From Psammoneis japonica (taxonomy: Eukaryota): a stretch of DNA of 64,000 nucleotides. The position numbers and the translations under genes were made by a program. Positions 230 to 35,242 of this stretch are shown here, piece after piece. The first letter of the stretch is position 1. The number at the start of each line of letters is the position of its first letter. The notes beneath the pieces are model-generated. The model was not told where the DNA came from. It did no database searches and saw only the letters and a program-made list of their open reading frames with translations. Location of the stretch: positions 248,001 to 312,000 of the forward strand of contig QPGO01000022.1 in the NCBI GenBank assembly GCA_008632985.1. Direction: 5' to 3'.

Positions 230-2340
230 CATCAAAAGCAGCGCGTTGTGGGATTGCCAGAGACTGTTGCAGGATGCACTCACGCAGCATCTCCAGAGCA
301 CAAAACACACAGCACTTGCACGCGACTTCATCAGGGTCATCACCAGTGGCTCGTGGCTCATTTTCTCTCAAGTGTTGCAGCCGAGATCTCCGTGGAACAG
401 GCGCAGTGATGAAGCTTGCGGTCAACAGACTTGCTTGCACCATGTCTTCCACAAGACGACGACCTGGCTGTCCCACCCACCAGGTGAGGCCAACGAAAGA
501 ACAACAACGAGGCAGTTGAGCCTCATTGTTTCGATTGTGACATTGCTGTTGCAGTCGAAACGATTTGTTTTCATGACAAGTGGTCATGTCTCTGCCTGTT
601 GTGGCTGCACCCAACCCCATCAACTGCGAGACCATTTGTGGGTCCATGCCGGACCCATTGGCCGGAGACTGTCAAGCTCATTTAGAGCCTTTCTTGGCTG
701 AGAGCGCCGAGGCCCCAGCTGCCCTGCGTGATGGCATGCTCATGGCTGGCAACAAGGTTCTCAAGGTCTTTGTGCACCTCGTGGGTGAGCCCACACCCAT
801 TGTTCATGTGGTGCACCACACGATGTGCTGCACTCCTGTGCCAGGCCTCGCTGTGCCTTGGGACAACCGCTCTCACACTCTGGCTTCAGACATCAGCCCG
901 AGCAACCAGGAGAGGTTGTGGTCATTGCCTGGACAGTCAACCCATTTGCATGCACACAACTGGTGAGAGTGCCCACCCCAAATGATGTGCAAAATCAGTG
1001 GGCAGCCATGGCTGGAGCAGACTGCCTCGGGCCCTGTGCCGCTGGGGAGCCCCACGTCAAGGAGGTGCGCACACGTTTCTTGGTGCCAACCCCGCCAGCC
1101 TGCTCGTCCCTCACTGCAGCCTGGCAGAACTTCACTCCACAACAGCTCTGGACAGATGTCATCCAACTCATCATTGCTGATGGTTGGGGAGCGGTGTGTG
1201 CCCCTCTGCTCGATTGGGCACACATGCAGCCTGCACTTGTCACACTGGCAATGCTGTGGGTGATCCAGACCAACCACCCACTGCATCACTGGCCATCCCC
1301 ATGGCCCCTGTTGCAGATGCATGTCTCAATCATTGTGTGTCTGGTCATGGCTCACTCAGGACTTGCCTGCTCTTGCCAATCATGCGGGCACCACGAATGC
1401 CATCCTGACCCACAGATGCTTCAGGCCATGCACACAGAGTTTGCCCAGCAGCACACCTGGGCTGCTGCCGCTTGCACCACAGAACATGCCCCAAAGTCAC
1501 CCACCAAAAACTCCCTCAGACAGTTGCTGGCATCCGTTGCATGTGTGAGGTCAATGCCAATGCAGGCTTGCCCGAGATGTGGCACATTCTTGCCGGGGCC
1601 AGCAAAGCGGAAGCTGTTTCCTCCATCCAAGCAATCCTGAATCAATGGGCACAGCAAGTTGGCACCACTTCCAATGCCCCCATCCTTGCACTGGAGCTGT
1701 TCAAGGGCCTGAATGGTTTTCAGCTGGGCAGCGCCGACCCTCAAGACTTCAACAGTGGACTGAGCATCTTTCTGACAATTGCGGGAACGAGCACCCAGTC
1801 CCAGCAAGCACCCACCCGCTCTTTCATCTTCCAGCAGTTGCGTGCCAGTGGAGCCATGCCGGCACTTTTGGACATGGTGCAATTTAACAACTTGGCCCCC
1901 ATCATCTCTGACAGTGCACTGAGTTTCCTGAGAACCTGCTGTGCCTGCGGCATCCTCCTCCTGGAGGTGGTCCCAGGACCAGCTCATCACCTGTTGCAGT
2001 TGTGTCGAGCCAACTTCTTGCATGGTCTAGAATCAATGGTGATCCAACTCAAGGAGTTCCTTTTGCTCTGCATGTTGGACCAGTGCTCTGGTGTCCTTGC
2101 CCGTTGCTGTCATCACACGCAGCTGAATGTGGTGTCGCACCTCAGTGCGGCACCCAGGCTGGGCAACCCCGTGTGCTGCTCCCGAATCTCGAGGAGCCAG
2201 TTGACATCATTTGCATGGAAGGATGTGTGAGTCGTCTCCTGCCTGTCCCCCATGGTCCTGCAACAGGCACCCATGCCAGCTGTGCCGGCCGCTCCAACCC
2301 ATCCGCCGGGTCCAAGTCCACCAATTCCAGGTGGCACTGT
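230..2340 (+). mobile_element. Heavily eroded transposon relic, probably ORF1 (gag-like) of a diatom DIRS/Ngaro-type retroelement
   Basis: Frameshifted ORF pieces 580-966, 825-1640 and 1472-2230 read as one protein once Cys/His is reverted to Tyr (e.g. PNPINCETICGSMPDPLAGDCQAHLEPF becomes ...YETIY...DYQAYLEPF). The block has almost no TpA. The family call rests on recalled similarity, not a search. Confidence 0.5.
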
Positions 2341-3227
2341 CGATCACCTTGGTGGTCTTGGATTCTTTGCTCACTGTCTTCTCTCAGGCTCTACATTTTC
2401 CTCTATCCCATCTCAACCCAAGCCTCCCTGATCCTCTCTTTCTGACCTTCGGCACTCCAATGATTCCTGCTCCACCTTTCTTGCTCTGTGCCTTGTCCTC
2501 TCCGTCTGCTCTTCTCCCATCGGTTGACTTCGCATGGCATTGCCTGTCCTCCGACCGCTTCGGCAGCATTTGTCGCACTGCCTCTCCCTCCCAATTGGCT
2601 TTTCAAGCTCTTAGCTACAACACGTGGTCCTTCACCTCTCCATGCACGCCCTCCGATTTACTTCCTCTCTTCCTGCTCCTTCATCTCCTGTGCCATCAAC
2701 CAAACGTCCTACGTCTAGTGTTTTCACCCTGTTCCACTCTGCCGCCACTACAGCTGCTCCCGTGCCTCCCTCTGCTGTTCCCTTCCATTCTCTGCAGGCT
2801 CTTCATAACTCTATTCTTAAAACGGGCTCCAGACTGACCTACTGGTACATGCCTGGTACTCCCGCCGTTTTCTTTTGGTTCCTCTTGTAAAGCTTCTACT
2901 GTGGCAACAGCCAGGAGCAAGGCTGTTTTGAACAGCCCAGCTTTGGCTGCAACATTTCTGAGCTTTTTCCAGATGAATCAGAGCCATGCAGGGGGGAGAG
3001 GACGGTCGGTCGCTTAAGGAAATGCGGTGATGCTAACAGAAAGCGAAAATAGCTGGGTACCCGATAGAACTAGTCAAAAGGCTGTCGCTTTTGCTAGAGA
3101 GAAGAACTAAGGGGCTCGAATACTTCTAAAAGTACAATCGCTCTACAGCAATTCTAAAAAAAGAAGCTCCTCGAATGTACCGAAACAAGCTCTGAAATGC
3201 ACTACTCTTTTCCCTTTGGTCGGTTCG

Positions 3228-5479
3228 CTAAAGAAGACCTTGACCATTCTTAGACGAAAAAAAGCTGTCAATAGATTTCTGCGTTTTCCCCTTTGACTTA
3301 ATACCATACTGCAAACGAACTTCTTGGGCGATGTGCGGAGGAAGCTCTGCGAGCACATCAACATCAATATCGCTCCATGAGAAAGTTTCTTCTTGTGGCG
3401 GTTTGTGCGAAAAGCTCTTCAAATTCTGGATGCAACGCCGCTCTTCGTTGTTCCTCAGACTGCAAGGATCTTGACCGCTTCGCTTGCTACTTGCAGTTCT
3501 GTCAAAATGAGGTGCTTCGTTCGATGCCGTTGCCTTAGAAGACACAGATTGTAACTGAGAGAAGATGCAGCGCTCGGGGTTTCTCTTAAAAGCGTCATCG
3601 GACTGCACATCAGAAAAATTGGTTGCTGCAATATTCATTCTCGTGACGTTTACGCTATCCCAGTTTGAGAGCAACGAATCCAACAACGGTTTCACCGCAT
3701 TTTCCAGCTGTCTCCGCATTTCAATGTCTGACATCTTCATCAGATATCTTCCATTTATTTCACATTGCTTGCTCTTGGTAACGAAAGGGCGTCGGTTTTG
3801 TATTCTGCTGTCAACCCCTCGCACCGTCACACGGATTGTAGTTGGAAAGGCGCGGTCGGGATTGGTCGAGTCCGACCTTCGCTGATATAGTAAACGAGGA
3901 AGCCTCAAGAGCAAGTCTTCCATGGCATTCCAGACAGCTTTCCATGACAACACTGTGCCTCGTCGAAACGAGTTCTCGACTGAGACAGTTTTTGGGATAC
4001 CGCCGCGGTCATCAGTGATAGACGAAGAATCAACACCTCGACACTTGTCAAAAAGCATGTCACAAATCGGAAAACTGACAACAGAAGAAGCAGTGACAAC
4101 AGGAGTGCGCAATCAAGTGAGCATACGATGCATCGCCAAAATCATCATGCGCTTGAAAATGCGCACTGACCTGTTGGACGAGTTGCAAGATTTCAAATTT
4201 TCAATGCTCGATTGAACTTGGTGACGAGGAACTTGCAGTAAATCGCTTACGAGTTATGACGAAGAAAAAAATAGCGTTACATACAAAAGCCAGTGGTGTC
4301 AGTCGACAGAAACACCTACTCTATCCTTTGCCATCTTACATAAAACGTACCGACATGTCCAAAGTCCGGTTCTGAAGAATGGTATTGCCGCAAGCAAGGC
4401 GTTAATACCGATAGTGTGCGATGCCCGAGCTGCGGGATTTTTCGTAGCGGCATTGGGAGAATAAGTTGTGATGCTTTCCAAGGGTACAGAATATTGAGAG
4501 AATTGGGCTTCTTCCTCGCAGCAGTAGATATGGATGTGAAACAGACAATGCGTCGAGAATGAGGATCACAAAACCAAATCATTGAACAACCAACAACAAC
4601 AACCAGTGACGCGAAACTAACCTTAAGTTCAGATGCCAGTTTTGCTAGCATGGGCGAGACGGACACTCCAACCGTTGTGTTGAATCCTGTTTCTGACTTG
4701 ATAGCGCGTCGTACTTCGTCAGCCATTCCAGCCGCAACTTGCAACCTCTGAGAACACTGTGTCTTTTGCAATTCCGAGAATCCAATGTGACGGCTATACA
4801 GAGGGGACAACTCGTCGCGGAAGGTGCCCGGTCCAACTGTGCATGTCGCGCCACTTTGGTCTTCGGTCAAACAGACGACGTTATGAGACATCTCACCATA
4901 GACGTAAAGGTTCGGCGATGACACGCTTCTGCGAGAGCCTTCTTTGCGAACGGCTAACTTGACAGCAGCAGTAATGTCTGCACACATTTCATCAAAGCCT
5001 CCCTTGCGCGCCGGAATACCCTCTCCTAGTCTTCTGACCGCCTTTCGGAACGTGTTGTATATATTTCGCGAATGCGCTCGATAGCGTTCAAGATCCGAGC
5101 CCTCGATTATAAGCAAGTTTGGACAGATTTGTTTAGCTTCAGAGCGAGATTGGAGCTTTTTCACTCCGACCTCACGTGCGACGTAATTGCTTGTAACAAT
5201 GATGTGCTTTTGACCGATAGCAATTGGACGCTCTTTGTAATCCGGTGGTCCGTCTATTTCCTCACACTGACAATAAAAGCAATCTACATCTAAATGTAAA
5301 ATGCATTTCGACCACAGTATTTCGATGGAATTGTTTTGTTCAATCCCAGCAGATAACGCGGCACCACAGTGGCGATCTGAATCGCTTTGTTCGACGAAAC
5401 TCGTTGCACTTTCGTCGTCTGATGATGATACGCTGAGGCTCTCACCAGGGGAGTGCAATTCAGACAAATCAAAAGGCAT
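3228..5479 (-). CDS. POLI: Y-family DNA polymerase, Pol iota-like (about 4 exons; introns near 4621-4512, 4350-4248, 4168-4076)
   Basis: Motifs ILHLDVDCFYCQ, PIAIGQKHIIVTSNYVAR, GGFDEM, TVGVS...LAKLAS..KKPN, LPMPLRKIPQLG and little-finger PTTIRVTVR. C-terminal ubiquitin-binding motif DIDVDVLAELPPHIAQEV. GT donors are visible (aag|gttag, cg|gtacg, cag|gtcag). Confidence 0.85.
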
Positions 5480-5790
5480 GACTCAACTTTTCACCACAGA
5501 CTTCACGCGAGCTCGAGCTGTTGCCCTATGATGATCATGAAAAAGGTGCATCGGCTTTTCCAATCTCCTTGTCTCCGTCTCACGAAGAGCAGCTTCCTAA
5601 TTGCTCACCACGGAGTTGCTCACCTACTCTACCGTGCCGTGCCACATGCTCACCACGACTTTTTCGCTTGTTCGAACCACACACGTGCAGCATGTCCCCG
5701 CCCCCCTCTTGTCAACTGACGAAGGCCTGACGCGAATGCGCCATAAAATGATGTGCCGGTAAATGTGTGTGATGTCGAGTTGAGAGTGCA

Positions 5791-5916
5791 TCCACACTGT
5801 TGTTTGCATTGTAACGACAAGACGCCGACACACCAAAGAGGCCATGCCATCCTCCACATTGTTGTTTGCATTGCAATGACAAGATGCCGACACACCAAAG
5901 AGGCCACATGCCATCC
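5791..5916. repeat. ~62-bp tandem duplication (2 copies)
   Basis: tccacactgttgtttgcattgtaacgacaagacgccgacacaccaaagaggcca versus tccacattgttgtttgcattgcaatgacaagatgccgacacaccaaagaggcca. Confidence 0.95.
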
Positions 5917-7701
5917 ACACCCAAGAGGCCACGCCATCGATGCTGCCACCCACACCCAAAGCCAAAATGAAGACATGCCAAAATGAAGACATGCAAGTGT
6001 CTGAGTTGTCCCACTGTGTTGTTGCAGCACAGCCCAAAGCAAGAAATGACATTGACATTTCTCCCATGGCTGCTGCATCTGACTGATTGGCTGATTGATG
6101 TGGCTGGGGCAGAAAACGCAGCAGAAGATGAGCTCAAAAGAAGCAAAGCAAGTTTCTGCAATTTGGGGGAAGGTGCTGACTGTGTTGCGTTCATCATGGC
6201 ACCTGTGGGAGGCGCTGGAGCATGCCAAAACAGAGCATGAGACAGCAATCATGCTGTTGACATTTTGGAAACACAGCAGCCATGGAAACATCATCGCCTG
6301 TTGAAACACACAAAGCATGAACAGCGCAAAGTGCGCCGGTTGCCTGAGTGGTGCTGACTGTGATGCACTCATCATGGGCACCTGTGGGAGGTGCCAGAGT
6401 GTGCCAAAACAAAGCACAAAATTGTGCAGTTGCACTTTTGTCATTTTGGGAACATGGCAGATGTGGTGAGCATGTGACGAGCAATGCCACGGTGAGCAAT
6501 TGGCAGCTCTTCTCATGAAACCCTCCTTGTTTGTTTGCTTTGTGATTTGTGCTTTGGGCAAGCAATTGATTTGATTGATTGAGTGCATGATTGCAGTTGA
6601 GCATGCAATCACAGTTAAGTGCACACAATGTGAGGAGGAGGAGCAGAGCCAGAGCGAGCAAGCAGAGTCAGCGAGGTGCTCTCATCTGTCGTGCATCTGT
6701 GAACAAGCGGGCAGGGAGCACTGACCATGCACACCACTGGAGTGAGGTTGTCCTTCATTCCCTGCTGAGCCATGTGTGTGTGTGTGTGCTGCTGCTGCAC
6801 AGTGCATGCATTGCTGTGTGGTGTCTGCTGCCAGGTTGTTCACAGCAGAAAAATTGCTGGCAACGCAATGGTCATCATGCCAGATGGTGCCATGATCGGC
6901 AGCGTGGATTGCCATTGCACAAGATGGCTCATGTCAAGTTTTGGGCTGCATTGCAGATTGTTGTTGGTGGTGACTCATCATTGTGTGAGATGCTTGTCAT
7001 TGGACACACAGACTTGTGGCGCACTTGTTCTTTTGACAACATGTTGTTGCAACATTCCTTCAATTGGGGAGGCAAGGACAGGATTTCAGATTGTCTGCAT
7101 GTCATGACATCATGGCAAGATTCATGCATGGTGCTGCAGCTGTTTTTTGCAGAAATTTGCAGCAACAGCATGCCAGGTTGCTGATCTAGCATCGTTGAAT
7201 TTGTCATGCACCTCATTTTGTGGTTGATGTTGTTGCTTCTCACTCACAGCAAACAGAGGTTTTCTTCTTGTTTTTGCAACCACAATGGCACAACACACAT
7301 GCCAAGTTGCCATTTGATGCAATTTTTCTGCTGCAGCTGTCTCGTGTGCAATTTGCAGTCGAGTGCCTTCATTCAAAACCAGCAAAAATTGAGTGTTTCT
7401 CTTGACACACCACACTGGCAACCCCAATTTCACACAAACTTCAAGCTCTTCTAAAAAACAGCTCCACACACCCACTGCATGGAATTTGTTAATTTTTTGG
7501 AAGTTTCTGTCAACTCCAATGTCCTCAATGACCATTCCTTGAATCTGAGCAATTGATTTGAATCAAACAGACCATGCTGTTCCAAAACACAAGGGGTGCA
7601 CTTTAAAATGCCAACCAGCCAACTGACCAACACAAAAAAGTGTGCAGTCACCAACCACTGAGTGGTCAATGATTCTGTCCATCTGGCAATCTGTCTTGCC
7701 A

Positions 7702-7826
7702 TTTGTCAGAAAGGGCCCCAGCAGGTGTTCTTCTTGACACTCCACCAAGGTCATCACATGACTGTTTGTCAGGAAGGGCCCCAGCAGGTGTTCTTCTTGA
7801 GGCTCCACCAAGGACATCACATGACT
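7702..7826. repeat. 63-bp tandem duplication (2 copies)
   Basis: tttgtcagaaagggccccagcaggtgttcttcttgacactccaccaaggtcatcacatgact repeated with a few substitutions from 7765. Confidence 0.95.
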
Positions 7827-8479
7827 CTTGTTTTGCAATGATGATGCATCAAACCAAGTTGTCATCTCTGGTCACAGACTCCAATCCCAAGTGGGAACAG
7901 TCTGACAACAGCAGAACCTGAGCAGGTTTGGCATGAGAAAATTTTCATTCCTGATGTGGACCTGACAGCACCGCAGTTGATGCCGGGTGGTTTTGGGGAT
8001 TTAAAGACCAAAGCAACCCTTGAGAGCTTGTGACACATGACAAATGATTGTCAAAGCATCATCAACAACATCCAATGTCATTGGAAAACAACTGTTGACT
8101 CATGGTGCACAAAATTGAACTGACCAAGTGTCACACACATGGGAAAAGAATCAACACAGCCATCTTGTCATCCGGCATCTGCCACAATTTGTGTGCCACA
8201 TGCATGAACCACTCTGACTCACAGGGCCAACAAATGATGTGGCCCATCAAAACCAAGTCCTCACAAACTCAGGTTGCAGACTCCAGCCAGCCCCAAGTGC
8301 AAATGTGGTCTGACACAAAAACTGGCCAATTTGGCCTGAGAAATTTTCATTCCCAATGTGAGCAATCACCCATGGACCCAACAGCACCACAGTTGAAACC
8401 ACCATCATCAGGACTCACATCCAAAATTTTGATCTGATTGCTCAACTCCACACAGCTCACAACTCAAGTGAAGAGAGCA

Positions 8480-11400
8480 AACAATGGCAGTTGTGCCACC
8501 ATCAGTTGCAACAAGTGACCTGGGCCATTGTTTCTTGTGCAAGCAGCTTGGAGTGTGCAGTGGTTGTGGGTTCTTGGATCTTCAGGGCCCAAATCTGGAA
8601 TGGCAAGAAATGTTGGTGCTTGATCTTCTGCAATGAAACGTTGACACTGAGTTGTTGAACTTGTTTTTCAGATGCGTTGAAGAAAGGCTTCTGAAGACCA
8701 CCTCTGCCAATCAGCACAACGGAGTGCACAGGAGTGTTTGTGAGGTGTGTTGCCACAAATGGGGCTGGAGTGGGCGTCAATTTTGGATGCTCATGGCCTG
8801 ACTTCTCTTTTCTGATTGCATTTGTAACTGCAGAGTGAATCTTCTTGGTCAGAATGACTGATGAGAGAGAAAGCAAAGTTTTCCCTTGGGGCAGACGGCG
8901 CATGCTGGGGAGTCTGGGTTGGCTCCTGGGTGGGACAGCACACAGCAAACTGCTGCAGACTGGGCACAGACTGGGCAGAGTGGATTGTTCCCAGTTTGGA
9001 ACATCATCCATGCATTGCATTGCTTGACTTGCCATTCTTTTTGCACTCAAAGCTGACAGAGATTGTGTTGGCTGGTGCCAGGTCTTGGTCTTCATGGTCC
9101 AGTTTGGTGCTCTTGTGAGAACAGCAGGGGTTGCTGAGAGCCAACAGCTTGGTTTGTTGCTTGCCTTTGGTTTTGGAGCACTTGCAGGAGTTGCAGCTTT
9201 GCAAAGAACCAAGTGCCAACAATCAGTTGGCTTGTTGTGATGTCTCTTTGCATGTTGCTTGGTTTCAAGACAAAGCACAGAGAAGGGAGGCAGTGATTGC
9301 CTTTTTGTTGTTTCCACTTTCCATCTTGGTTCTCGCAACCTTGGTGTTGGTGGAGAAAAAGGTGTGTGAGGTGCATCTGTCCTTGTCCAAAAAGATGTGT
9401 GAGGTGCATCCGTCCTTGTCCAATCTTGGGTCCTTCATGTCACAAGACCTGAAGGACAATGCCACATTGTCTGCAGTGGCTCTGTGATGGTCCCTGCCAC
9501 CATTGTGCCAAAATCATTTGGCAGAGTGTTGCCCTTTTTGCGTGGCTGTTGCAAAGGCTCCAAGGGTGCAGCGCAATTGGATGACAGCAAGCTCATCCAT
9601 GAATGGGTTGTCTGCAAGTCCAACCTCACCAAAAAAGTGTTCTCAGTGGGTGAGAGCTGCACCTTGCTTTTTGTTGGTGTGTCTTTGGCACTTGCTTCTC
9701 AGTGGGCTCCTTCAGTGTCAAGGAAGTCAACCAAGAGAAACAATTTTGTTGGCAAAAAGGTGAGATGTGAAAAAAGCAAATGAGTGAGTGTGTTGTCAGA
9801 TGAGTTGCCATCATGGGATGGGCAGTCACCAACAGCACTCTTCTTTCCTGGAAAACAATGACTGAAGGATTTGCTTTTGGCACCCAGCATGATTGGTGCA
9901 AATTTGTGGGTGATTTCAATTTGTTCTAGATCAGTCTCTTCATTGCCAAAGTTGGACTTTGCAGCCAGCAGTCAGCCAGAGGTGGTGGTGCTGTTGCCTT
10001 GGGAAGAGCCCGTGAAAAGGGCAGGAGGTTGCCTTTGATCATGTGAGCAATCTGCCCACATGCCGTGAGTTCCTTGGTTTTGAGTGTGAGACCATGTGCC
10101 AGATGATGGAGAATCTCCTGCAACACATCAACCTGTCTGGATGTTGCAGCCACTGACACCACATTCAGATGCAAGTTTGAGAAATCTTCTTGTCCAAAGC
10201 CTTCCATCTTTGATCTCTCAAGAGGTCACATCTTGAGCCACCTTCTGTTTTTGACATGTGGTGTGAGTCAACACAGGTGACTCAGGAAGTGATGTGTGGG
10301 GAATGATGTGTCCAAGGCAGTTGAGGCAACCAACAAGATGTTGTTCAATCTCCTTGTGTGAGTTCCACCTTTCTTGACAAGTTGTTGGAATTGCTTGGGC
10401 CAAGCCACAAATTTGCCTTTTGAAAGTGCCGTGCTCATGTGTCATGTGTCTGGCAGCCAGCCAAGGACTGTCTTGAGTTGTTCAAGTCTCCCTTCAACAA
10501 GGATCTTCTTTGAGCAGGTGAGGTTGTCACAAATGAGATCTTTGTTGGGGTGCACTGGCTGGCAAATGGCAAACCGCATCCATCCCCAGGAGCACTTCTC
10601 TTTGTTTGGCAGCACATGTCAACATCTGGAATGACTGTGACTGTGTCATCTGTGCAGGATGGCATTGGGAGGGATGTCAACCAGGATGTCAAGAGCTGGA
10701 GCAAATGGCACATCAGCGCTCTCACAATGTGGGGGGAGGTGGTCTTTTGTCAGGTTTTGGAGGGTGGTTGGGTCCCAGGACTTGCGCTGCAGGATGTCAT
10801 TGCCCAGATTGCAAATTGATCTGGAGATGTTGCCCCACAGATCTGGTTTGGCTTGCATCCACAGCAGGTGAATCTCAGAGCCAGGGGGGGGGGCAAGAAG
10901 TCATCCATGGTGGCAATGGATTGTGCCACTGTGTTGCTGTTCAAGTGACCTCAGCAGCAGGCCAACTTGCAGTTGGTCTTCTGGATCAGAGCCCAGGTTT
11001 GTGGGTGTTGGAGATGGGCTGATGCAACGTGGTGTGTCAGGCAGTGCAGCACATTTCCATGGTGCGTGCAAGGGGCAAGAAGTTCTTCAGATGTGACTTT
11101 GGGATTCACTGAGGTGCCCAGCCCCAATTTGAAGGATTGTTCATGAGCAACGCACTTGGATGGAACCACCTCACCCCTTTCATTGATTGGGAAGATGATG
11201 GATCTTGTCTTTCAGCAGTCAGGGGCAGTTCCCAGCATTCGTGGACTTCATTGTGAAGTTTTTCTCTCAGGATGGATGCATGTCACTGCTGACTTGTGGT
11301 TTCCTCTCTCAATTGCTTTGCCCAGGTTGTCATGTTGCACACCCTCTTTGACTGGTTCAAGGGAAACTTGGCTGGCTCCATGGGAATTGACTTTCTTCCA

Positions 11401-13330
11401 CAGTGGGTGACAGTGGAGATGCAGTCAAAGTTGATCTGTGTGGATCAAAACTCCAAGCTGTGACCTGAGATGATGTTCTTTGAGGTTGAGGCATTGAGAT
11501 GGAATCATCTGACTTCATTTGGCTGCTTTTTTCTGGCTTCAAAGGAGAATGAGATTGGCTTTGATGGCAGTCATGTGGAGGTTCTGGTGAGGTGAGGTCA
11601 TCTGTCAGCTTGAGCAGTGGAGCATCATTGGATGGGGTCTGAGCAGTCTGGCTGAAGAGACAGAGATGTCAGCAGATCTGCAGAGTTGGCCTCAGGTGGT
11701 GACAGTGCAAAAGGCTCCACTGGGTCAACCTTGGTGTGAGACTTTTGGATTTAGTTGCATGAGAGGCCAGGGCAGGGGTCCACTGGGTCAGCCTGGGGTG
11801 ACAACTTTTGGCAGGTTCCACTGGGCACTTCCAAGGAGAGCACTGTTTGGATTCAAAAACCTTCAGATCTGCTGAGCCAGGAGGCATTTTGATGGGCTCC
11901 ACACTGGGTCATCCTGGGAGGAAGACTTTTTGAATTTGGGTGTCCTGGGATTTGTCTTTTGTGTTGAAAATGGGGAAGCAAGTCCATGGGTCACATGGGC
12001 AATCTTTGGGCAGCAGATTTGGCATCTTGGGGGTTGCCTTGGGGGCTGTCATCATCAGGATTGTTGCTGCTGAGTCTTGAAGGTCATGGCCCTGCAGCTC
12101 AATGGCTCCATGCGGGTGAGTGCACTTGCCAAGCATCTCATGCATCATCTCTCATTGCTTGAACAATTGTTTCTCTGTGCCACCTGGGCTCCTCTCACAT
12201 TGAGGTGTTCCTTGGATTGCATGAGAGATAAGGAGAAGTTGTTGGTTGTGAGGAGGGGGGGGGGAAGTCATGCAGCAAGGAGAAACTTGATCCTCTCATT
12301 GAGTCTTGGGATCTTGAGTTGTCATTGAGACAGTTAGAACTTGATCTGTTTGTCTTGATGAGGCACAATTTGGAGTGGATGGGAGGTTGCAAGGAGGAGC
12401 TTCATCTGCTTGTTTCTTTTGGGTGTGTTTCTTGTTTTCTTGTTTGGCAGGAGAGCTTGCATGTTTGCATCACTTGAAGCTGCCGCCACTGCCAAGAAAC
12501 AACATGCATCCCACTGTCCGGCATTGTCTTTGTCAGATGGGGAGGAGTTGCAACATGAGGAGATCCACCTGGTCACACCCTGCAAAACTTTCCCATGAGA
12601 TTTGGAGCATTTGAACTTGCACAAGGAGGCAATGCAACAGCCCTTTTTGATGTGGAGCTTGCTGGGAGCCAGGTGCCTTCAAATTCAGGCAAGGATTTGA
12701 TGTTTGGGTGGCATGCTTTGCTGCAGTCTTTGTCTTGTTTGAGCTTCCAGGCAGGGGCCATTTCATCATTTCACACCAACTTGCCTTGATTGGTGGCTGA
12801 GTCCTCTCCTTTGTGTTTGGCACCATGCTTGTCATCATTGTTTGGAGGTGGAGGTGGCTGGGAAGGCTGGGGTGATTTGAGCAAAGTGTTCCGAGACTGT
12901 CTTTGCTGGAGGTTGGAGAAGCTGATGAGAAAGTTGTCAACATTGCTGCAGACCTTTGCATTGGTGCATTCTTGTGGTCACAGTTGTGCACATTGATCAA
13001 TGTCTGGGAGGACTTTGGCAAGGAAGGTGGAGTCCTTTGCTTGATGTGAGATGTGGTGCTTCTTGACACGGCAAGCCCAGGAGAGAAGGTTTGGCTCCAC
13101 TGTTCAGTTTTCACCTGCAATGATGGCAAGCAGGCTTGCAAAGTTTTGGATCTGGACAGAGAGAGCATCTGCAGTGGGGGGCTCATGCAGAATCTCTCAC
13201 AACAAGTCCAAAATGCAATCTGCATTGCTGCTCAACAGGCAGTTCACAAAGAAGTTCTTCAAGCTGCTGTTTGCCAGCAACACAGCAAACAAGCTGCCAT
13301 CTTTGTGAGACCAAAACAACTCCTGTTGAG
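8480..13330 (-). mobile_element. Decayed DIRS/Ngaro-like tyrosine-recombinase retrotransposon (ORF1 with C-terminal Zn-knuckle-like region, RT, RNase H, YR)
   Basis: Minus-strand motif remnants lie in the expected order. ORF1 end WKLKQDKDCSK...CKFKCSKSH (~12600-12750). RT ICNLGNDILQRKSWDPTTL...VPFAPALDILVDIP, CTDD (=YIDD, 10645-10656), KILVEGRLEQLKTVLGWLPDT*, LVGCLNCLGHIIP. RNase H QGNSTTTSG*L..KSNF and FPGKKSAVGDCPSHD. YR LIVGTWFFA..SC..SKTKG..TKLL, TISVSFE.KKNG, NPLCPV, PVHSVVLIGR/WSSEAFL..I.KQVQQLS. Confidence 0.85.
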
Positions 13331-13399
13331 ATTTTGATGCACAATGACGATCATCACACAGCATCATCAACAATGTCTGACATTTTTGAGAAATGACTG

Positions 13400-16300
13400 T
13401 TGAATTTGCTGCAAGAAATTGAATTCACAGAATGCCATGTGTGCAGCTGAAAGAATCAGCAGTGCAACCATCTGATTGTCCACCCATGGGTGTCAACCTT
13501 CTTTCCAGAGCAAACTGTGGTGGTGGGGGGGGGGCACTTTGTGCACCCTGCATGTTTTGCTGGTGCAGGAGATGAGTTTAGATTTGACCCACATGGCAAC
13601 ACGCAACAAAATTGTTTTTGCCAAAGTGGGGGGCAGCACCTCTCACAAATCTCCGGAGAACTTGTGCTTGCAACAAATGCCAAGACGCCTTGTTGGGTCC
13701 TCTTTTTTGTTCACTTTTGCACATTCTTTCATTGCCACCAGCTCCAATGATTTTGACATTCTGAGCACTGCCAAGCACAAATTCTGCTTGGTGTGATGCC
13801 ATCAAGAGAGACTCAGATCCCTTCCAAAATCAGAAACTGGCGGGCCAGTCTTGAGGTGCCAAAGTGGACATTTTTGCATTGGCAAGATGGCAGCCAAGGC
13901 CAGGATCCAGCAGGAGGGGTTCTCTGCCAACAGCTTGCTGTCAAAGAAGACAAAATGTGGGCCACACACACTGGAAGTGTGACAACAAAATCTCAGCTGA
14001 GCACCTGGAGAGACTCTGCAACCACAGTCACAGCTTGCAATTGCACACCCAGTTTCTGGGCCAGTTCAAAAGCAGCATTCTCTGAGACAATGGCTCCTGA
14101 TGGACAGGCTGGGGTTGACAACAAACAACATGGCACAGAGGTTGGTGGCTGGCCAAACAAGAAGCTGCAGGCAGGTGTGTTGACACTGGCAGCAGCTGCA
14201 AAGATGGAAGCAACAAGACTGCAGCTGGCTCTCCACCACAATGAAAAGCACAAAGATGTGCAACACTTTCCAAGCTGCCCGGGCACAACAGAAGATGGAA
14301 GAACAAATTCCTGCTGCACAAGTGTGCCAGCTGGGTCAACAAGAAAGACACAGCATCATGATGTGTGGCACATTGCAAGTTTGCAGCCCACATTGGGCTT
14401 GCTCACTGTGTGTCTGGATGTGCTGCTGCAATGTGCCAGTGCCCAACAAGACATTTTCAAGCTCTGTCTGGCTTTCCATGCAATTGGGTCTTAGAGTGCT
14501 TTGCTGGGTGTGAAAAATGTGAAAGAGAAGCAAGCTCTGACTCCCAGCTCAAGATGAAAAAAGCCGCTGCTGAAATGCACAAGCTAGCCAGCAGTGTCGT
14601 GGCCCAGCTTGATTGTGGCTGCTCTCCACCCCAGCTTCAAGGAAGTCATTTGCTGCTTTTTTCATGAATTTGGCTGAACAGCTTGTGATTTGCATGACTT
14701 TTCCCAAATTTCACTGTGCTTCACCATGGTGAAAACATCAAGCCACAAGTCTGCAATGGAGGTGGTCCATGCATCTGCACCAACTCTCATCTTTTTTGTT
14801 TTCATTGTGTGTCAAAGGTTGCACACTTGTGAATGGACCACTTTGCTGTTTTGGAGAAATGTTGAGATTGCTGTCATTGTCATGCATCTGGTGTCATGGT
14901 GCCAGATGTTCTTGTGTTTGTGCATGTCAGGTGTGAACATGGACAATTTTTCCATTCAAAAATGAACACTGCAAACAACCTCATTCAAGTGCCATGGCAC
15001 CAATTCCAGGACAAGAGTGGGGAGATGACCTGCCTTGAATCTGCCAAGAATGCTGCCATCAAGGTTCATGTGCTTTTGGACACATGCCAAGACATGTGAA
15101 AGATCAGAAGCATGCTTGCAGTTCCTTGGAAAATCCCAGCAAAAGCTTTGTGTGCCAAGCCACTGGGGTTATCCAGCAAAGGGTGACTGTTTTCTTCAAG
15201 AGCATTCTGTGCCACTCTCAAAGTTCAGGACATGCAACAAGGGTGTCAACAGCCTGCGCCAAATGCAGCAAAGCTGCAAGAGGATGGGAGGCACCATTGC
15301 CCAAAAATGGACAGCCACACTCATCATTGCCCACATTGTTGTGCACACTTGCTCATGTTTTGGGGAGCAGCTCCTAACTCCATTGAGCAAAAGCACCTCT
15401 GCACCAATTGTGCATGCACCAAATGGCAGCAGCACACTTTTTGGGATGATGTCACACACCTCACAACCCGTGTGCAAATGTGGAGCTTGTGGCAAGCTGA
15501 GCAAGGTCAAGTGCATGCAACATTGACCAGAGTAAGTGAAAACCAACCATCCTGTGTTTGTTGTTGAAAATTGGCCAGCTTTGCAAACAAAACAGCTGAG
15601 TTTTTTGTCTTTGTGCTCAGATGGATCACCCACATCATGGTGCTCTTGTGCTTGAGCCAGAGCTCTTGCACATTGTGCAGATTTTGTGTGCTGCTGCACA
15701 AGTTGCTTGGGGAACCTGCAACATTTCAGGAACTCTGGCTCTGCAGCTTCCAACCAATGGTGCAAAAAATCCTTGCAACTGGGCATCATTTGGTGACTGA
15801 TGAAAGCCAATGTTTGAAAACAAGTCTCTCCAGTGCTTTTTGCAGAAGAAAAAAATCTGGCACCATTTGTGCACCACTGGCAGTTCTGCAAGTGGAAGCA
15901 AAGCTGCATGCAATCAATGCTGCAAATGCACCTGGAGGCTGCACATGACATCTGCTTGAAGAGGCTCCAGCAGAGAGATTTGATTCTCAAGTGCACAGAA
16001 GCACAGCCCACAGCACAGATGTGTGCTGCATTTTAGCTGACCAAAAGCCCCAAAGAGTGCCAACACCAACCAGCAACCATTGGGCATTGATCAGTTGGAT
16101 GCTGCTGCAGCCTCAGTTGCAACTCAGAATTTGACCAAAGTTGGGCATTGTGGCAACAATGAACATGGCACCCACACCAGCATGTCTGCCTGGTCTGAGT
16201 CACATCACACTGATGTCTGGATTTCCCCAAGACTCATGCAGCACTGTGATGAAAGCACTGCAAGATGTTCTTGGTCTGCACCTCTGTCACTCTGAGACTG

Positions 16301-17340
16301 TGCTGTGCCTGGCAGCAAAGGTGAGGAGCAGAAAGAATGGTGCTTGGGAGCCAGCATCACAAAGATGGCACTTAAGAGGAACTGACATCAAAAAGATTAA
16401 GACAAGCACAAAGAGCTGTTGCATCATTTGGGAGAGTCAAGGGAGCACAAAGCAGTCAAAGAATTGCTGTTGGAGGATGGAAAGGACAAAACACTCTTGC
16501 AACAAACTGGAAGTGAACGTCTCACAGATGAGTTTTTTGCCAAGTTTTTCTGAGCACATCATGGAAGTCCAAGAGAAGATCTTTTGGAAGCACTGCACCA
16601 TGTTGTCACATCTTTGAAAAAGCTCCGTGCATGACCCACGGGAAAGATTGCAGGATTGTTGATCCCATGACTCTCAGAAGGTGAGTGAGTTGGTCTTCAG
16701 CAATGGCACAGCTTGGGCTGAGTCCCACAGTGAATGGAAAAGTTGTTGCCACTAAAGCTGCTAAAAGCACTGGGGAATTGGGTCAGCAAACTTTGTTTTG
16801 TTGACACAGATTGTGCTGGAAATCTGTTGACTCAAAGGCTGCACAGCCAACATTGATTTTTGTGCAAACAGCTCCACCTGTCATTTGGCTCAACAGGAGA
16901 CAAAACCAAATGGAGTCATCTTCTGCTTTTGGAGGTAACACCTGCTTTTCACATTCCAAAGAAACTGGTTGTTGCACTCCAGTGCAGCTTGTGAGTGTTT
17001 TTTGTGGTGCTCCAGTTGAGGGTCCGTCAAAAGTGCTTTTTGTGTGAAAAAATGGAGTGGAGGAGTTGTGAAAAATGTTGGCACTCCAGGGTCTGAAACA
17101 CAACACAACTGTCTGCCATGTTGCACACAAAGCTGTTGCTCTGGGTGCTGTGAGGGTTGGAAAAGAGGATGGAGAAACAAATTTGGCAGACATGTTTTGA
17201 CCAGGTTTGTGATGCAGAACACTGGCTTTGATTTGTTGTGGTCAGGCCCTGGCACCCTTCTTGTGCCACCCACACAGTTTCACCTCCCAGGCCAATTGTG
17301 ATTGGTGGTTCATGTCTCTGGGCTCTTTGTGTTTTACTTC
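13400..17340 (+). mobile_element. Eroded TE-like coding relic of uncertain family (Crypton-like tyrosine recombinase is possible)
   Basis: Same TpA/CpG erosion and frameshifted protein-like fragments (e.g. TNQQPLGIDQLDAAAASVATQNLTKVGH...LMSGFP near 16065-16230) loosely resembling the Crypton YR C-terminus. Weak. Confidence 0.3.
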
Positions 17341-17539
17341 CACATTGGAAGACATTTCAATGATGGGCCCAGTGGATCATGGGGACCTGATGAATTCTTG
17401 CAGTCTGACCGACTTCGAAAGACACCTGTCTGTTCTTTTGGTGTCTTGTCGTGACACTCGGCTCCAGTGGGATTGTTCTTTACTCTATTGTTGGCTTTCT
17501 TCATCTTGGGACGAGGTGAGACCGGTAGAATTTGCTCGT

Positions 17540-17651
17540 ATGGTAGAGAGGCCCAATGGTGGGAGATGGCCATTGGCTTTGTGTGCTGGAAGACGCATGG
17601 TAGAGAGGCCCAATGGTGGGAGACGGTCATCGGCTTTGTGTGCTAGAAGAC
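17540..17651. repeat. 57-bp tandem duplication at the edge of the eroded block
   Basis: atggtagagaggcccaatggtgggagatggccattggctttgtgtgctggaagac versus atggtagagaggcccaatggtgggagacggtcatcggctttgtgtgctagaagac. Confidence 0.95.
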
Positions 17652-17821: not shown

Positions 17822-19744
17822 TTAGTTCATGCCTATCACTCTAATCGAGTCCCATTCACCAAATTCAAATCCCCCAGAGTAGTTTGGATCGCTTACCAGA
17901 AGATAATTCCAGTTCCTCTTTCCCCCCTTTTGTCCAGAGGCCTTTCCTTCGTCAGAATCGTGCACCGCTCTAGAGATGGACCGCAACTTCCGAGATGCCT
18001 TCGTCTTGGCCAAACCCGGAGCGACCTTGGGCGCCGATTTTGCTGCCGATAAGGTCTTTCTTGCGTGCAAGTCAATCTCCTTCCACAGCAGCATAAATTC
18101 TGCGGTGGGAATTGTGGTTTTCTTAATCCACAAGTCGCGACAGGCAATGCTTACCGAAGTCGTGTCTTGGCCTAGATGCTTGGCCTCCCGTACTTTTTCG
18201 ATGAGATCTTTGCTGCACCGTTTAAACCATTTTTCTCTTGTCCCCGTCTTCTTTCTTGGCACAGTCGACACGTTAACTGGTTTTGCCACAGTCTCTTTCA
18301 CATGTTCTTTCCGTTGTTTCTTGGTTGTCGAACTGGATCGCTTTGTCGGGAAAGCAAGGGCATCTATGTCTGCCATGGGCTTCGTTTCAAATGCTGAATG
18401 ACTTCGTTTACGAACCCCCGCTGATTTCGAAGGTTTCAGCGGCTTTGCAAATGCCTCCTCCAATTGCAGAGCCTGTCTTGCAGTGTTGCGCTTTGTGGGA
18501 CGATTCAAAGTACTTCCTTTCCAAGACGGCGATACAATTGCAGAGGTATCTGCGGCAGCAAATGCAGCAGCTGCTTTGGAGGCTAGGAATGCTTTCTTTG
18601 ACTGGCTCTTTTTTGCCATACCTGACTCTTTCCTCATAAGACGTCGTTGATGCGCTGTGTTGAGCCGTGCCACTTTCTGGGGAGCAGCCCTACTTGTAGT
18701 AGGGGGCGGAGCAACCCTCCGGATTGCATTTCTTAGCATCCCATCGTTTGACGTTCTCCTAGCCAGCTTCCGTGGTTGCATATATTCTGACACCTCCGTT
18801 GCATGAGCTTCACAGTAAACTTCAGACACTGGATCTTTGTAAGGTACGTCTTCATCACCTGGCCGTTCTCCGGGATAGAAGTAGACATGCTTAACGTTGA
18901 ATCGCTTCCAGCGTGCACAACCGACGTGCATAGCAACGGTGCATGGCTCTGAAATCTCAGGATGACAGTTTCGAAAGTGTTCGTTGTCATCCCCTGCTGT
19001 GCACTGCATCGAAAACCGTAGGCAACCTTTCTTCCAATCTTTCTTGCCACAAATCGAACACACCAACCTTTTCTGGTTATTTTCGACCATTGCCGAAAGT
19101 GGCGTGTGCTCCCCATTAACTTTAGAGCACTCTACGAAATGATGAATCGCAACTGGATTGTCGTCGTCGTCATCATCCTCGCTTTCGACAGATTCATCCT
19201 CGGAGTATCGCCACTCGCCATCCTCATCTGCGAAGCGTCCTTTTTCATCGCAGGCGTACACAAGACTACCGTGTCGCAGCAAAGTAAACCCACAGAGAGA
19301 ATGGACCCACGCCGGTCGCCGGGGAAGTCCTTTTTTCTCATTAGCAGGAAGTGTTTGGTGCCGTCCGTCGCGACCGTGGTCATCATACAGTGGATGCATT
19401 GCATGCAAGCCGCCTGAAACCGAACAAAGTGCGCACTCCGTTGGCCTCTTGACCTGAGTCAAAGTAGAAACAACGGCATCGGAATCCTTCCCCGAGCGGA
19501 CTTGTACAGTCTTCCCGACATATTCGCATGCCATGCATTGGAAGAGAGGATCCCGTTTGTCGGTCGGTGTAAGGCCATAACACGTCTCGTGAACGCAGAC
19601 GCCACATGTCTTGCACTGCTGCATAATCTGATTCTTCCACTTGTTGGGACCCATCTCGCACAGGTCGCACTTCATAAGAGAAGAGGACTGAGCTAGTTTG
19701 CCTGAATCCCTTCGAATCATCTTTGAACCGATGGACGGCTTCAT
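17822..19744 (-). CDS. PHD finger plus extended PHD (PZP module, BRPF/JADE/AF10-like) chromatin protein, 640 aa
   Basis: CDLC...QCKTCGVCVHETCYG...FQCMAC, CALC...WVHSLC...CSICGKK...MQC...C..AMHVGCAR...YCEAH, followed by a basic low-complexity tail. Single long ORF. Confidence 0.85.
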   Translation of the reverse strand: MKPSIGSKMIRRDSGKLAQSSSLMKCDLCEMGPNKWKNQIMQQCKTCGVCVHETCYGLTPTDKRDPLFQCMACEYVGKTVQVRSGKDSDAVVSTLTQVKRPTECALCSVSGGLHAMHPLYDDHGRDGRHQTLPANEKKGLPRRPAWVHSLCGFTLLRHGSLVYACDEKGRFADEDGEWRYSEDESVESEDDDDDDNPVAIHHFVECSKVNGEHTPLSAMVENNQKRLVCSICGKKDWKKGCLRFSMQCTAGDDNEHFRNCHPEISEPCTVAMHVGCARWKRFNVKHVYFYPGERPGDEDVPYKDPVSEVYCEAHATEVSEYMQPRKLARRTSNDGMLRNAIRRVAPPPTTSRAAPQKVARLNTAHQRRLMRKESGMAKKSQSKKAFLASKAAAAFAAADTSAIVSPSWKGSTLNRPTKRNTARQALQLEEAFAKPLKPSKSAGVRKRSHSAFETKPMADIDALAFPTKRSSSTTKKQRKEHVKETVAKPVNVSTVPRKKTGTREKWFKRCSKDLIEKVREAKHLGQDTTSVSIACRDLWIKKTTIPTAEFMLLWKEIDLHARKTLSAAKSAPKVAPGLAKTKASRKLRSISRAVHDSDEGKASGQKGGKRNWNYLLVSDPNYSGGFEFGEWDSIRVIGMN

Positions 19745-27680: not shown

Positions 27681-29492
27681 GATTCTTTGTAGGCCCAGTG
27701 TCCTTTACCTCTGGTATAAATGCTTTGCGTTGAATGGTAGGGTGTACGGTGTACGGTACGGTAGGGTGTCGATGCGACAGCACGGAGCACGGAGACATCC
27801 AACTTGTGTCGTGTGTCGTCGTGGGGTGCCGTGTTCCGTGCGCGTGATGTTGGCGGTACTGAAGGTACGCGCCCTGTGCACTTATGGAGCCCGACGAGGA
27901 GGGTTCGGCCCCGCCGAACCCGACGAGAAGGGTCCAAGCAACGAGGTGGAGACCGACGAGGCGGGTTGCACAATGGCGAGAACGACCCACAGCTTGTCGT
28001 GTGGCCTTCTCGTCGGGCTGATTTGCAACCCAACGAGAAGGTCGTAACCGAGGCGCGTTGAGTGCACACGGGAGCGTATATAGGGTCTCCCGCTGTGAGG
28101 ATTTTATATATATAATTCGACCGTTAACTACTTAGGGAGAGCTTTCATGTGCAAGACTGAAGTACCAAAGTATGCAAAGAGTACTTTTGTACTGCAGGTT
28201 TACTTATTGGCGACGGTTTTTGGTGCCGACTGGCAGTCGCGCAATCATTCAAAACTATTAACGCTATATATGATATTTAATTCAAACTTATATATTATAT
28301 GCATCTCAGCACCTAAAGCCGTTATTACGATCGAAATTCAAAAACGTTGGTGGGATTGATTCAAATCGACCACGTAGAATTATACATATTGGTATAGTTT
28401 AACGGCAGAATCCCTGTAGTCTACATAGAGACAGTAAAGGTTCTACTTACAACCCTTCTACACGATTTTAATACTGACGTACATTTGTGTACATTTTGTA
28501 CCGAGAAATTTTGTTCGACTCCGAACGGTGCGCGGTCGAGTTGATGGCTCATAATTTTTCCGAGCGGCCGATCGACAACCACCGCTCCCTCCGACAATGG
28601 CGCTTTTGGCCGATTTGACCGTACGACACCGCCTCCCGACCCCTACCTTGCTTGACAGTGTCATGCGCCATTGGGTCTTGCCATGTGAGTGAGCCACGGC
28701 TCTAGAATGGGTCAGAATGACTCAAAATGTGGTGAGCTCTGATTCTCGCGGAATCAAGTCTCGTTTTCCCCCGTTCTCGTTCGCAATGGCGCTCACCTTG
28801 AACCTCCTTGTCCCGCATCTTGATGCATGGGACTCGAAGATGGGGATGTCAAAGTCCATGGGTCTGCACCGTCGCCGTCACCGTTTTTGGCTCCGTCGCC
28901 GTTCCACCACGGCGCGCTGCTTCTGCTGCCCCGGTCCATGCCGTCCTGCCATGGCGCTGCCTCCGTTCTCCAAGCTACTGCCACAAGTTTTATGGACTGG
29001 ACGAGTCACTCGATCCCAAGCGCTGACTTTCCACCATTGCTCATGCCGATCTGCCGCCTGCTTTTGTCGTCCTGCTCCGTGGAGCCAGCAGACTCTCTTT
29101 CATCTGACGTTCCTCCCGCCGTTGACGATCCAGGCACCCCAAGTTTTGACCCTGCTGGTGAGTTTCTATTGGTCGTTTGCTCGTTGTTGCATTGCATTTG
29201 CAGAAAAGTGTGTTCTCACCTCCTTGTGTTGTTCCATGTCACCGCAGATGTGGTCATTTTGCAGGCGCTGGTGCCTTGCTTCTTTGTGCAAGTTTTTGTG
29301 CGTGCCAATGTCTTCTTGCTTTGTTCTTTTTATTGAAGACATGGTGCTAACTCAAACAGATCTTTCCTCTCTTTTGCGCCCTTGCAATGTCATTGGATTG
29401 CTCTCCTTGCGTCTCTCTCCGGCACTTGCATCATTGTCGGTCTCTTCGCTCGTGCTTCGCTCGCGTCGTCTCTTCTCCACGCTCGTTTCCCC

Positions 29493-29803
29493 TACTACAA
29501 ATTGCAAGACAATTGCGCGATTCACGTGCCCGAAGGTGGAACATCGTTGCCCGAAGCAACATTCTCCCTTCGCGCAGATGTCATTTCTACGTATGATGTG
29601 GTATCAAAATTTTCATTTTGGTCGTCTAAATCGTCCCAGTCATTTCATCAAATGACCTTGTGGTACTCTCCTACGTGATCTACGCAAATCGGAGCTTCGG
29701 GCTGGCTGGTACATTTTCTACAGGCTCTACGTGCGCGAAGCTCGAATTTCAACAATCACCCTTCGGGCACGTGAATCGCGCAATTGTCTTGCAATTCGTA
29801 GTA
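29493..29803. mobile_element. MITE-like non-autonomous DNA transposon, ~310 bp, ~42-44 bp TIRs, flanked by TA
   Basis: Left arm TActacaaattgcaagacaattgcgcgattcacgtgcccgaagg. Right arm ccttcgggcacgtgaatcgcgcaattgtcttgcaattcgtagTA is its reverse complement with one mismatch. Confidence 0.8.
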
Positions 29804-34999: not shown

Positions 35000-35208
35000 A
35001 AAGCAGTTGAATGTTCATTGTTTTCGATTGGCGGCACCGCTGCCATGGTCGAAGATGACTTGTTTTTGCAACCCACCCTCTGCCGGTGTGTGCCACACAG
35101 AGTGAAAGATGAGATGGAAGAACACAAGACATTGTGGCAAGCAAACCCAGCCCCAACAGTTGCGCGAAATCATTTGGAGTGCTTGAAGAATGCACCCTTT
35201 GTGTGTGC

Positions 35209-35242
<34 letters not shown>

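Follow-up and report, generated by a model that had tools for sequence, protein, structure and literature searches.

In mutation-accumulation lines of the alga Bigelowiella natans, 231 of 302 new point mutations arose in two integrated viral regions, and 230 of these 231 were A>G or T>C changes, all 230 of them on TpA (Mettrop et al., bioRxiv 10.64898/2026.01.13.699255). The same preprint reports a mutation rate in the viral regions ~1000 times the genomic one, with only some lines affected, and a 27-fold higher diversity in the hypermutable region. It describes the nucleocytoplasmic large DNA virus (NCLDV) region as large, single-copy and silent, and it lists 124 genomic clusters of TpA-depleted, CpA+TpG-enriched 1-kb windows, mostly unannotated. 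An ADAT2-like deaminase is named there as the candidate enzyme, with its action on chromosomal DNA put forward as a hypothesis, and DNA editing by amphioxus ADAT2 is cited (bioRxiv 10.64898/2026.01.13.699255). Two further processes that alter dinucleotide composition are relevant to diatoms or to genome defense. Fungal repeat-induced point mutation (RIP) changes C to T mostly at CpA and creates TpA (RIPCAL, PMC2621366). In diatoms, 5-methylcytosine (5mC) marks repeats and silent genes (PMC12344493), and CpG-context methylation is described for a Phaeodactylum tricornutum retrotransposon (PMC2806351). Here, we analyzed a window of 64,000 nt from the diatom Psammoneis japonica (assembly GCA_008632985.1, contig QPGO01000022.1, positions 248,001 to 312,000, forward strand), in which three gene-free blocks are almost devoid of TpA, poor in CpG and rich in TpG and CpA. 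The explanation that fits these blocks best, to which we assign a probability of about 0.6, is that silent DNA has been subject not only to CpG decay but also to a separate transition process directed at TpA.

Composition of the TpA-depleted blocks

An initial annotation of this DNA had noted a near-absence of TpA over a stretch of ~12 kb at 5700-17650, together with CpG depletion and an excess of TG and CA, and had placed the same pattern at ~230-2340 and ~35000-37200. Block limits were set here from the positions of TA, and all three blocks are gene-free (observed/expected (o/e) ratios in brackets):

220-2392: block A, 2,173 nt; TA 4 (0.04), CG 66 (0.39), TG 231, CA 252
5812-17335: block B, 11,524 nt; TA 24 (0.03), CG 68 (0.10), TG 1408 (1.75), CA 1272 (1.99)
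34999-36985: block C, 1,987 nt, between a Kelch gene and an EF-hand/Vps62 gene; TA 5 (0.04), CG 43 (0.35), TG 234, CA 210

The near-absence of TpA over the long stretch is thus borne out in block B, and the two further occurrences correspond to blocks A and C with refined limits. When the blocks are pooled (15,684 nt), TpA occurs 33 times (o/e 0.03), CpG 177 times (0.18), TpG 1873 times (1.78) and CpA 1734 times (1.91), which agrees with the CpG depletion and TG/CA excess first noted. In the 46,400 nt outside the blocks, the corresponding counts are 1709 (0.58), 2935 (1.03), 3108 (1.09) and 3240 (1.10). At the outside TA density, ~578 TAs would be expected in the blocks.

A sliding-window calculation of TpA and CpG o/e had been proposed as a check; run on this window, it sets the blocks sharply apart. 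All 11 of the 1-kb windows in 6001-17000 have o/e values of 0.00-0.09 for TpA, 0.04-0.26 for CpG, 1.40-2.03 for TpG and 1.82-2.22 for CpA, as compared with 0.40-0.90 for TpA and 0.85-1.27 for CpG in 1-kb windows outside the blocks. Uninterrupted TA-free runs extend over 1825 nt (9927 to 11752), 1244 nt (12335 to 13579), 1202 nt (683 to 1885), 1102 nt (8825 to 9927) and 804 nt (5812 to 6616), the first and last of which confirm the absence of TA reported for ~9930-11750 and 5814-6615. The longest run without TA outside the blocks is 273 nt. The block borders are sharp, with normal genes within about 100-200 nt. In non-ORF (open reading frame) DNA outside the blocks (12 stretches, 5.7 kb), TpA is at 0.79 and CpG at 1.14, and three introns outside the blocks give 0.62 and 1.06, respectively. 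Since TA and CG are normal in nearby non-ORF DNA and introns, the block pattern is not a product of genome-wide drift.

The scarcity of TAA and TAG, with only TGA as a frequent stop, would give rise to long false ORFs in the blocks. When stop triplets are counted on both strands, the blocks contain 768 TGA, 38 TAA and 19 TAG, as compared with 1626, 737 and 769 outside. In six-frame translation, Tyr makes up 0.02% in the blocks vs 2.06% outside, with Cys at 6.3 vs 3.5 and His at 5.2 vs 3.0; Trp and Gln are also raised. The long junk ORFs had been described as free of Tyr and rich in Cys and His, and this description holds for the two at 8505-9434 (− strand) and 13757-14491 (+ strand), which contain no Tyr, 10 Cys each, and 15 and 13 His, respectively, as well as for the six-frame counts. 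Annotators should be warned that gene callers will predict Tyr-free, Cys/His-rich "proteins" in such blocks.

Transition signature, surviving TAs and read support

If only transitions had acted at TpA and CpG, the number of pyrimidine-purine steps is expected to be conserved. This is what we observed, with 243 such steps per kb in the blocks vs 237 per kb outside; relative to outside DNA, TA+CG is down by 86.7 per kb and TG+CA is up by 93.2 per kb. The GC dinucleotide rises from an o/e of 1.04 outside to 1.21 in the blocks and AT falls from 0.90 to 0.84, both of which are expected from TAC>TGC and TAT>TGT changes. Deamination of 5mC had been said to cover the loss of CG only, and this is supported by blocks A and C, which keep CpG at 0.35-0.39 while TpA is at 0.04. 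These results indicate that the loss of TA is separate from, and stronger than, 5mC decay.

The TAs that survive in the blocks carry a context bias. When they are classified by the purine (R) or pyrimidine (Y) on either side, 25 of the 33 are YTAR, 7 are RTAR, 1 is YTAY and none is RTAY, as compared with 291, 502, 422 and 494, respectively, among the 1709 TAs outside the blocks (Fisher p=4e-13 for the YTAR excess). YTAR is the sole class with a purine 3' of the A on both strands. CG survivors in the blocks show no flank bias. A model with two parameters, in which the A of each strand is hit independently and expectations are drawn either from all outside DNA or from non-ORF DNA, reproduces three of the classes with a survival per strand of 0.39-0.50 for TAR and 0.04-0.05 for TAY. 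For RTAY, 0.4-0.5 survivors are predicted and 0 are observed, and the fit holds for both sets of expectations. On this model, 5'-TAY appears to be about 3-4 times more mutable than 5'-TAR, with the two strands independent, and a strand-wise trinucleotide preference of this kind is what an enzyme would leave. Bacterial TadA acts naturally at U-A-C-G, and YAC was the preferred site of early base editors derived from TadA, which would match a TAY preference. The YTAR bias of the survivors, and with it the TAY preference, is a detail new to this study. A test of product asymmetry (YTGY+RCAR vs YCAY+RTGR), which gives 1.43 in the blocks vs 1.34 outside, was left unused because it is confounded by CpG-derived products.

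The direction of change can be approached through a duplication that straddles a block border:

5791..5916 (+ strand): 62-nt tandem duplication over the left edge of block B, with 4 differences between the copies

The outer copy has TA at 5812, CG at 5815 and CG at 5823, whereas the inner copy has CA at 5874, TG at 5877 and TG at 5885. The outer copy thus keeps TA and CG where the inner copy has CA or TG, which points to change in place. From the composition of the blocks and this one edge duplication, we infer that TA was lost rather than never present.

Sequencing reads are expected to show TA in the blocks if its absence arose during assembly or polishing. Contigs of X1, a public run of the same organism, carry the same TA-free sequence over the blocks and depart from the window at 58 letters of 8,742 nt; X1 is possibly the assembly's own data, of unrecorded platform, and its support is not independent of the assembly. 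The X1 contigs over the blocks are 0.8-6.5 kb long, and one 6.5-kb contig extends out of block B into the flanking gene. Their 31-mer depth is 53-62, as compared with 68-70 for contigs over the neighboring gene, although these k-mer depths are not a formal copy number. Because depths of 53-62 need accurate reads, a base-calling artefact is unlikely.

Over the gene at 2762-5646, X1 departs from the window at 1 letter of 2,872 nt. Such differences are ~19 times denser in the blocks (58 in 8,742 nt, within the span 1164-14114) than in this gene between blocks A and B, and 109 of all 138 differing places are transitions. The excess in the blocks may reflect the allelic diversity of a diploid. The summed contig depth reaches 1475 in 7338-8004 and 761 in 14675-15341, vs ~60 elsewhere, and 139 of 235 aligned contigs are only 90-95% alike, a hint that the genome probably holds many relatives of short segments of block B at other places. 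Contigs of another run, X2, cover a 40-nt piece of block B (6203-6242) and no part of block A, which says nothing on expression.

Origin of the block DNA and competing explanations

The long stretch had been called a block of transposable elements (TEs), and the mutation in it had been called repeat-restricted. The first of these claims finds no support in domain searches. Pfam gave no credible TE or viral family for 136 stop-to-stop ORFs of at least 70 aa (E<=0.1) and no credible family for 18 read-through frames (six per block, E<=1), with no match at all in the six frames of block B, and neither scan revealed remnants of a transposase, reverse transcriptase or integrase. The faint matches to DUF2811 (E 0.038), 117-like_vir (0.27) and FANCI_S4 (0.17), and to SNF2-rel_dom in one ORF (E 0.021), all lie far below gathering scores. 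No pair of long terminal repeats (LTRs) and no terminal inverted repeats were found for the blocks; a 32-nt inverted match at the ends of block B (5810-5841 / 17425-17456, 75% complementary) scores 32, as compared with a mean of 22.8 and a maximum of 34 in shuffles, and is probably due to chance. When 173 ORFs from outside were searched against the blocks with tblastn, nothing fell below E 0.01, and Rfam gave 0 matches over the whole window.

The claim of repeat restriction fares no better. In self-BLASTN and in a word search in a purine/pyrimidine alphabet, the blocks share no sequence with one another or with other parts of the window; tandem duplications, short and local, were all that these searches returned, as were they in tandem repeat (TRF) and repeat searches of the window. 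Together with the long X1 contigs (0.8-6.5 kb) at gene-like depth, which is not a formal copy number, this suggests that the blocks are single-copy. The duplications and the strand-skewed parts of block B are as follows:

5791-5916, 7702-7826, 9356-9423, 17537-17651 and 35230-35274/35518-35562: short duplications, tandem or closely spaced, of 33-63 nt with copies 90-94% alike
8500..13000 (+ strand): sub-segment of block B with TG over CA (580 vs 409, binomial p=6e-8), G over C and T over A
7000..8500 (− strand): sub-segment of block B with CA over TG (TG 151 vs CA 212, p=0.0016)

The short duplications lie within the blocks and directly at either edge of block B, and the pair in block C begins with a (GA)n run. 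Of ten segments tested for TG/CA balance, eight have no significant imbalance. Block B is a mosaic in composition, and the skews may be a property of its original pieces. A weak codon-like periodicity was also seen in places: the period-3 power of the purine/pyrimidine sequence is 2.8-5.1 in 8701-10500 (+ strand) and 1201-2100, as compared with a block median of 1.07 and 2.85 outside, and the + strand frame of 8701-9600 has 58% purine at position 1, as in real genes. Windows starting at 8701-9901 have a power of 2.8-5.0. The stretch at 8701-10500 may be the ghost of a former gene. An exhaustive phmmer search with the read-through of 8701-9900 (+ strand) returned 0 relatives among 1.84 billion representatives.

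The genes around the blocks are of ordinary composition and type, beginning with the one between blocks A and B:

2762..5646 (− strand): ordinary gene with normal TA and CG

The 1-kb windows at 3001-5001 in this gene have a TA o/e of 0.43-0.53 and a CG o/e of 1.02-1.10. A contig of run X2 on the − strand, within 3234-5594, joins over 4075-4170, 4247-4360 and 4511-4621, with ends CT..AC on the + strand and GT..AG on the − strand. By the look of this spliced contig, X2 looks like RNA, and the GT..AG joins point to three or more short introns in the gene, in which TA and CG are normal. The PHD-finger gene adjoining block B (17822-19744, − strand) has 46 relatives with a best identity of 43%; all of the named ones are from diatoms, including Ditylum, Skeletonema, Cyclotella and Pseudo-nitzschia. 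Genes in 17700-64000 encode PHD finger, FG-GAP, PAP-fibrillin, Paf1, CIR/CWC25, PPR, Kelch, EF-hand/Vps62, DUF3638/DUF3645, SH3 and SNF2 proteins, all of ordinary nuclear type. The 19 ORFs of at least 250 aa that were scanned yielded no domain of a deaminase or DNA methyltransferase. A 44-nt inverted repeat (29493-29536 / 29760-29803, 97.7% identical) lies in ordinary DNA, at and just downstream of the end of the ORF at 28717-29655.

In the explanation that we favor, the blocks would be silent, gene-free diatom DNA in which a pair of transition processes is nearly complete. One would be a locally targeted A:T>G:C hypermutation at TpA, giving TpA>TpG on one strand and TpA>CpA as read from the other. 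In the most economical chemistry, a TadA/ADAT2-like enzyme would deaminate DNA adenine to hypoxanthine, hitting each strand independently and ~3-4 times more efficiently at 5'-TAY. The other would be CpG>TpG/CpA decay, as from the deamination of 5mC in methylated silent DNA. What is targeted would be a sharply bounded domain of chromatin or DNA, and not repeats as such. A second A:T>G:C process at TpA in silent DNA had already been proposed in the initial annotation; it stands as the best fit to the bounded transition signature, with a direction that is deduced rather than observed.

Several results weigh against this explanation. The direction of mutation is read from composition and from one 62-nt duplication with 3 informative differences, and no substitution is polarised. 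Seven internal duplicate pairs are balanced, with TA in copy 1 twice and in copy 2 twice among 30 differences. Among 40 listed differences between the window and X1, 4 are TA<->TG/CA and 20 are CG<->TG/CA, and the 3-4 TA-type changes per ~1,240 TG/CA sites do not exceed the background transition rate. At this level there is no sign of ongoing TA hypermutation. CpG decay in the blocks is visibly still going on, and the loss of TA may be finished or may come in bursts. The GC content of positions outside any pyrimidine-purine step is 0.47 in the blocks vs 0.44 outside, which gives no hint of an AT-rich viral origin and suggests that the starting material was host-like. The skew at 8.5-13 kb reaches positions outside TA and CG steps, so it need not stem from the process acting on TA. 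In 37 diatom-like metagenome loci (224 kb, around relatives of the PHD-finger protein, mostly genic), no 1-kb window has a TA o/e below 0.34, and the pattern is hence not a general one among these loci, although a sample this small and mostly genic says little on repeats or silent DNA there. Finally, no result identifies the blocks as foreign, viral, TE-derived, methylated or silent.

Some of these points would suit a process without a dedicated enzyme, in which a by-product of repair or replication slowly drives TpA>TpG/CpA in methylated, late-replicating or repair-prone heterochromatin, either through error-prone patch synthesis around T:G mismatches or through a polymerase with a TpA-specific bias. 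The losses of CpG and TA coincide in the same blocks, the dominance of CpG in current variation (20 of 40) with TA-type changes at background fits a slow, long-running process that has exhausted its targets, and blocks without a recognisable coding remnant fit great age. We nevertheless regard this as rather unlikely, since TA is erased more fully than CG, and completely so in blocks A and C, where the loss of CG reaches only 60-65%, and since a TA:(TG+CA) ratio of 33:3607 at equilibrium implies a rate of TA loss roughly 100-fold above that of the reverse transition. The survivors fit a strand-wise preference of the process for TAY over TAR, which is typical of an enzyme, and in B. natans this signature appears in bursts that affect some lines only (bioRxiv 10.64898/2026.01.13.699255). 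It is also conceivable that the blocks arrived poor in TA and CG, as foreign or mobile insertions whose composition was shaped elsewhere or by selection, with no mutation in place. Such insertions would account for borders ~100-200 nt from normal genes and for a block B composed of segments with different strand skews, but this origin is improbable, as the same extreme signature is found in three blocks that have no mutual similarity and encode nothing recognisable. The density of pyrimidine-purine steps is host-like, as is the GC content at positions not affected, and the border tandem copy, which keeps TA and CG where the inner copy has none, points to change in place.

A further alternative is that TA and CG exist in the DNA and are modified or mis-polished, and hence read as TG or CA. 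X1 shares its sample and study with the data from which the assembly was probably made, its platform is unrecorded and it is hence not independent, and base modifications concentrate in silent DNA. Such an artefact would nevertheless require that each TA be consistently misread as TG or CA on both strands, and this in X1 contigs whose 31-mer depth requires accurate reads, while the conserved pyrimidine-purine bookkeeping and the 0.3-1.1% allelic differences inside the blocks look like real evolving sequence. Moreover, 5mC, 5-hydroxymethylcytosine, N6-methyladenine and 5-hydroxymethyluracil are copied as the parent base in sequencing by synthesis, which counts against an artefact, and we hold this alternative to be very improbable. 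Finally, a retroelement transcript might have undergone ADAR-like A>I (inosine) editing before reverse transcription and insertion. According to the Discussion of the B. natans preprint, ADAR-type editing typically favors a 5' U (bioRxiv 10.64898/2026.01.13.699255), and APOBEC DNA editing of vertebrate LTR retrotransposons provides a related case of edited retroelements (PMC4866542). However, TG (1873) and CA (1734) are both raised and near-equal in most segments, so that both strands must have been hit, and the blocks contain no reverse transcriptase, integrase or LTR. To our knowledge, ADARs are known only from animals, which also counts against this route, and we give it almost no credence.

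Comparison with known systems

Like fungal RIP, the process that we propose would hypermutate DNA locally, by transitions only and at specific dinucleotides, and would thereby deprive unwanted DNA of its coding capacity. RIP makes TpA from CpA, whereas the blocks show the opposite (TpA 0.03, CpA 1.91, TpG 1.78), and RIP needs duplicated sequence, whereas the blocks have no detectable duplication beyond short local tandems in this window. RIP itself was rejected as an account of the blocks on the grounds of the mirror-image dinucleotides and the lack of duplication. Maumus et al. 2009 was considered as a RIP-like precedent from diatoms and set aside, as "RIP", "deamination" and "hypermutation" each occur 0 times in that paper.

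The decay of CpG through 5mC resembles the blocks in that their CpG o/e of 0.10-0.39, as compared with 1.03 outside and 1.14 in non-ORF DNA, is accompanied by a gain of TpG and CpA in non-genic DNA. It accounts for the CG half of the pattern only. In one of the diatom-like metagenome loci with a relative of the PHD-finger protein (L017:1-1188), CpG is at 0.00, TpG at 1.67 and CpA at 1.42, and TpA remains at a normal 0.60, so that the loss of CpG does not entail that of TA. Deaminases of the TadA/ADAT2 type, which edit A34 of tRNA, offer a likeness for the other half, since they convert A to I, which is read as G, with T or U directly 5' of the target.

A broader proposal is that diatoms carry an active adenine-editing defense, strand-independent and directed at 5'-TAY, that erases TpA from silent or foreign-marked DNA alongside cytosine methylation and is homologous to the chlorarachniophyte process. 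We put this forward tentatively and consider it possible but doubtful. If it were true, it would point to an old genome-editing immune system shared across the SAR group (Stramenopiles, Alveolata and Rhizaria) instead of a one-species oddity, and to the removal of TAA and TAG stops, Tyr codons and TATA-like signals from the target DNA. The narrower explanation, a transition process aimed at TpA, would, if true, mean that A:T>G:C editing known from one alga in a 2026 preprint also works in diatoms, which are major marine primary producers, and that TpA editing is able to run to completion. TpA near zero together with CpA and TpG near 2 would then be a simple marker of silenced or invading diatom DNA, and the destroyed coding signal would account for the failure of TE and virus annotation to pick up such DNA. 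The preference for TAY over TAR provides a testable enzyme specificity.

The closest described system is that of B. natans. The initial annotation knew of no description of such a process; this does not hold for eukaryotes generally, given the B. natans precedent, and it does hold for diatoms in the literature searched, as no description of the TA-erasure pattern in diatoms turned up in full-text searches. The blocks described here are the first diatom case and the most extreme yet. The two cases share a TpA-depleted, CpA+TpG-enriched footprint such as TpA>TpG/CpA changes would leave, bounded regions, a single-copy target and many unannotated sequences (bioRxiv 10.64898/2026.01.13.699255). The clusters in B. 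natans were defined by a Rho of <=0.43 for TpA and >=1.52 for CpA+TpG in at least 3 consecutive 1-kb windows, and all 11 windows in 6001-17000 clear these thresholds comfortably, with a lowest TpG/CpA mean of 1.75. The differences are those of lineage, stage and degree. B. natans is a chlorarachniophyte (Rhizaria), whereas the blocks are from a diatom. In B. natans new mutations were caught in the act, in targets that can be recognised as viral and that still contain TpA, whereas the diatom blocks show an end state of unrecognisable origin. The diatom blocks also show a strong loss of CpG, and CpG is mentioned 0 times in the main text of the B. natans preprint. That main text likewise gives no 3' context for the mutated A (0 occurrences of "context", "trinucleotide", "flanking" or "downstream"), whereas TAY appears to be preferred here. 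In completeness, finally, the Rho of TpA is 0.45 in the NCLDV region of B. natans (bioRxiv 10.64898/2026.01.13.699255), as compared with 0.03 in the diatom blocks.

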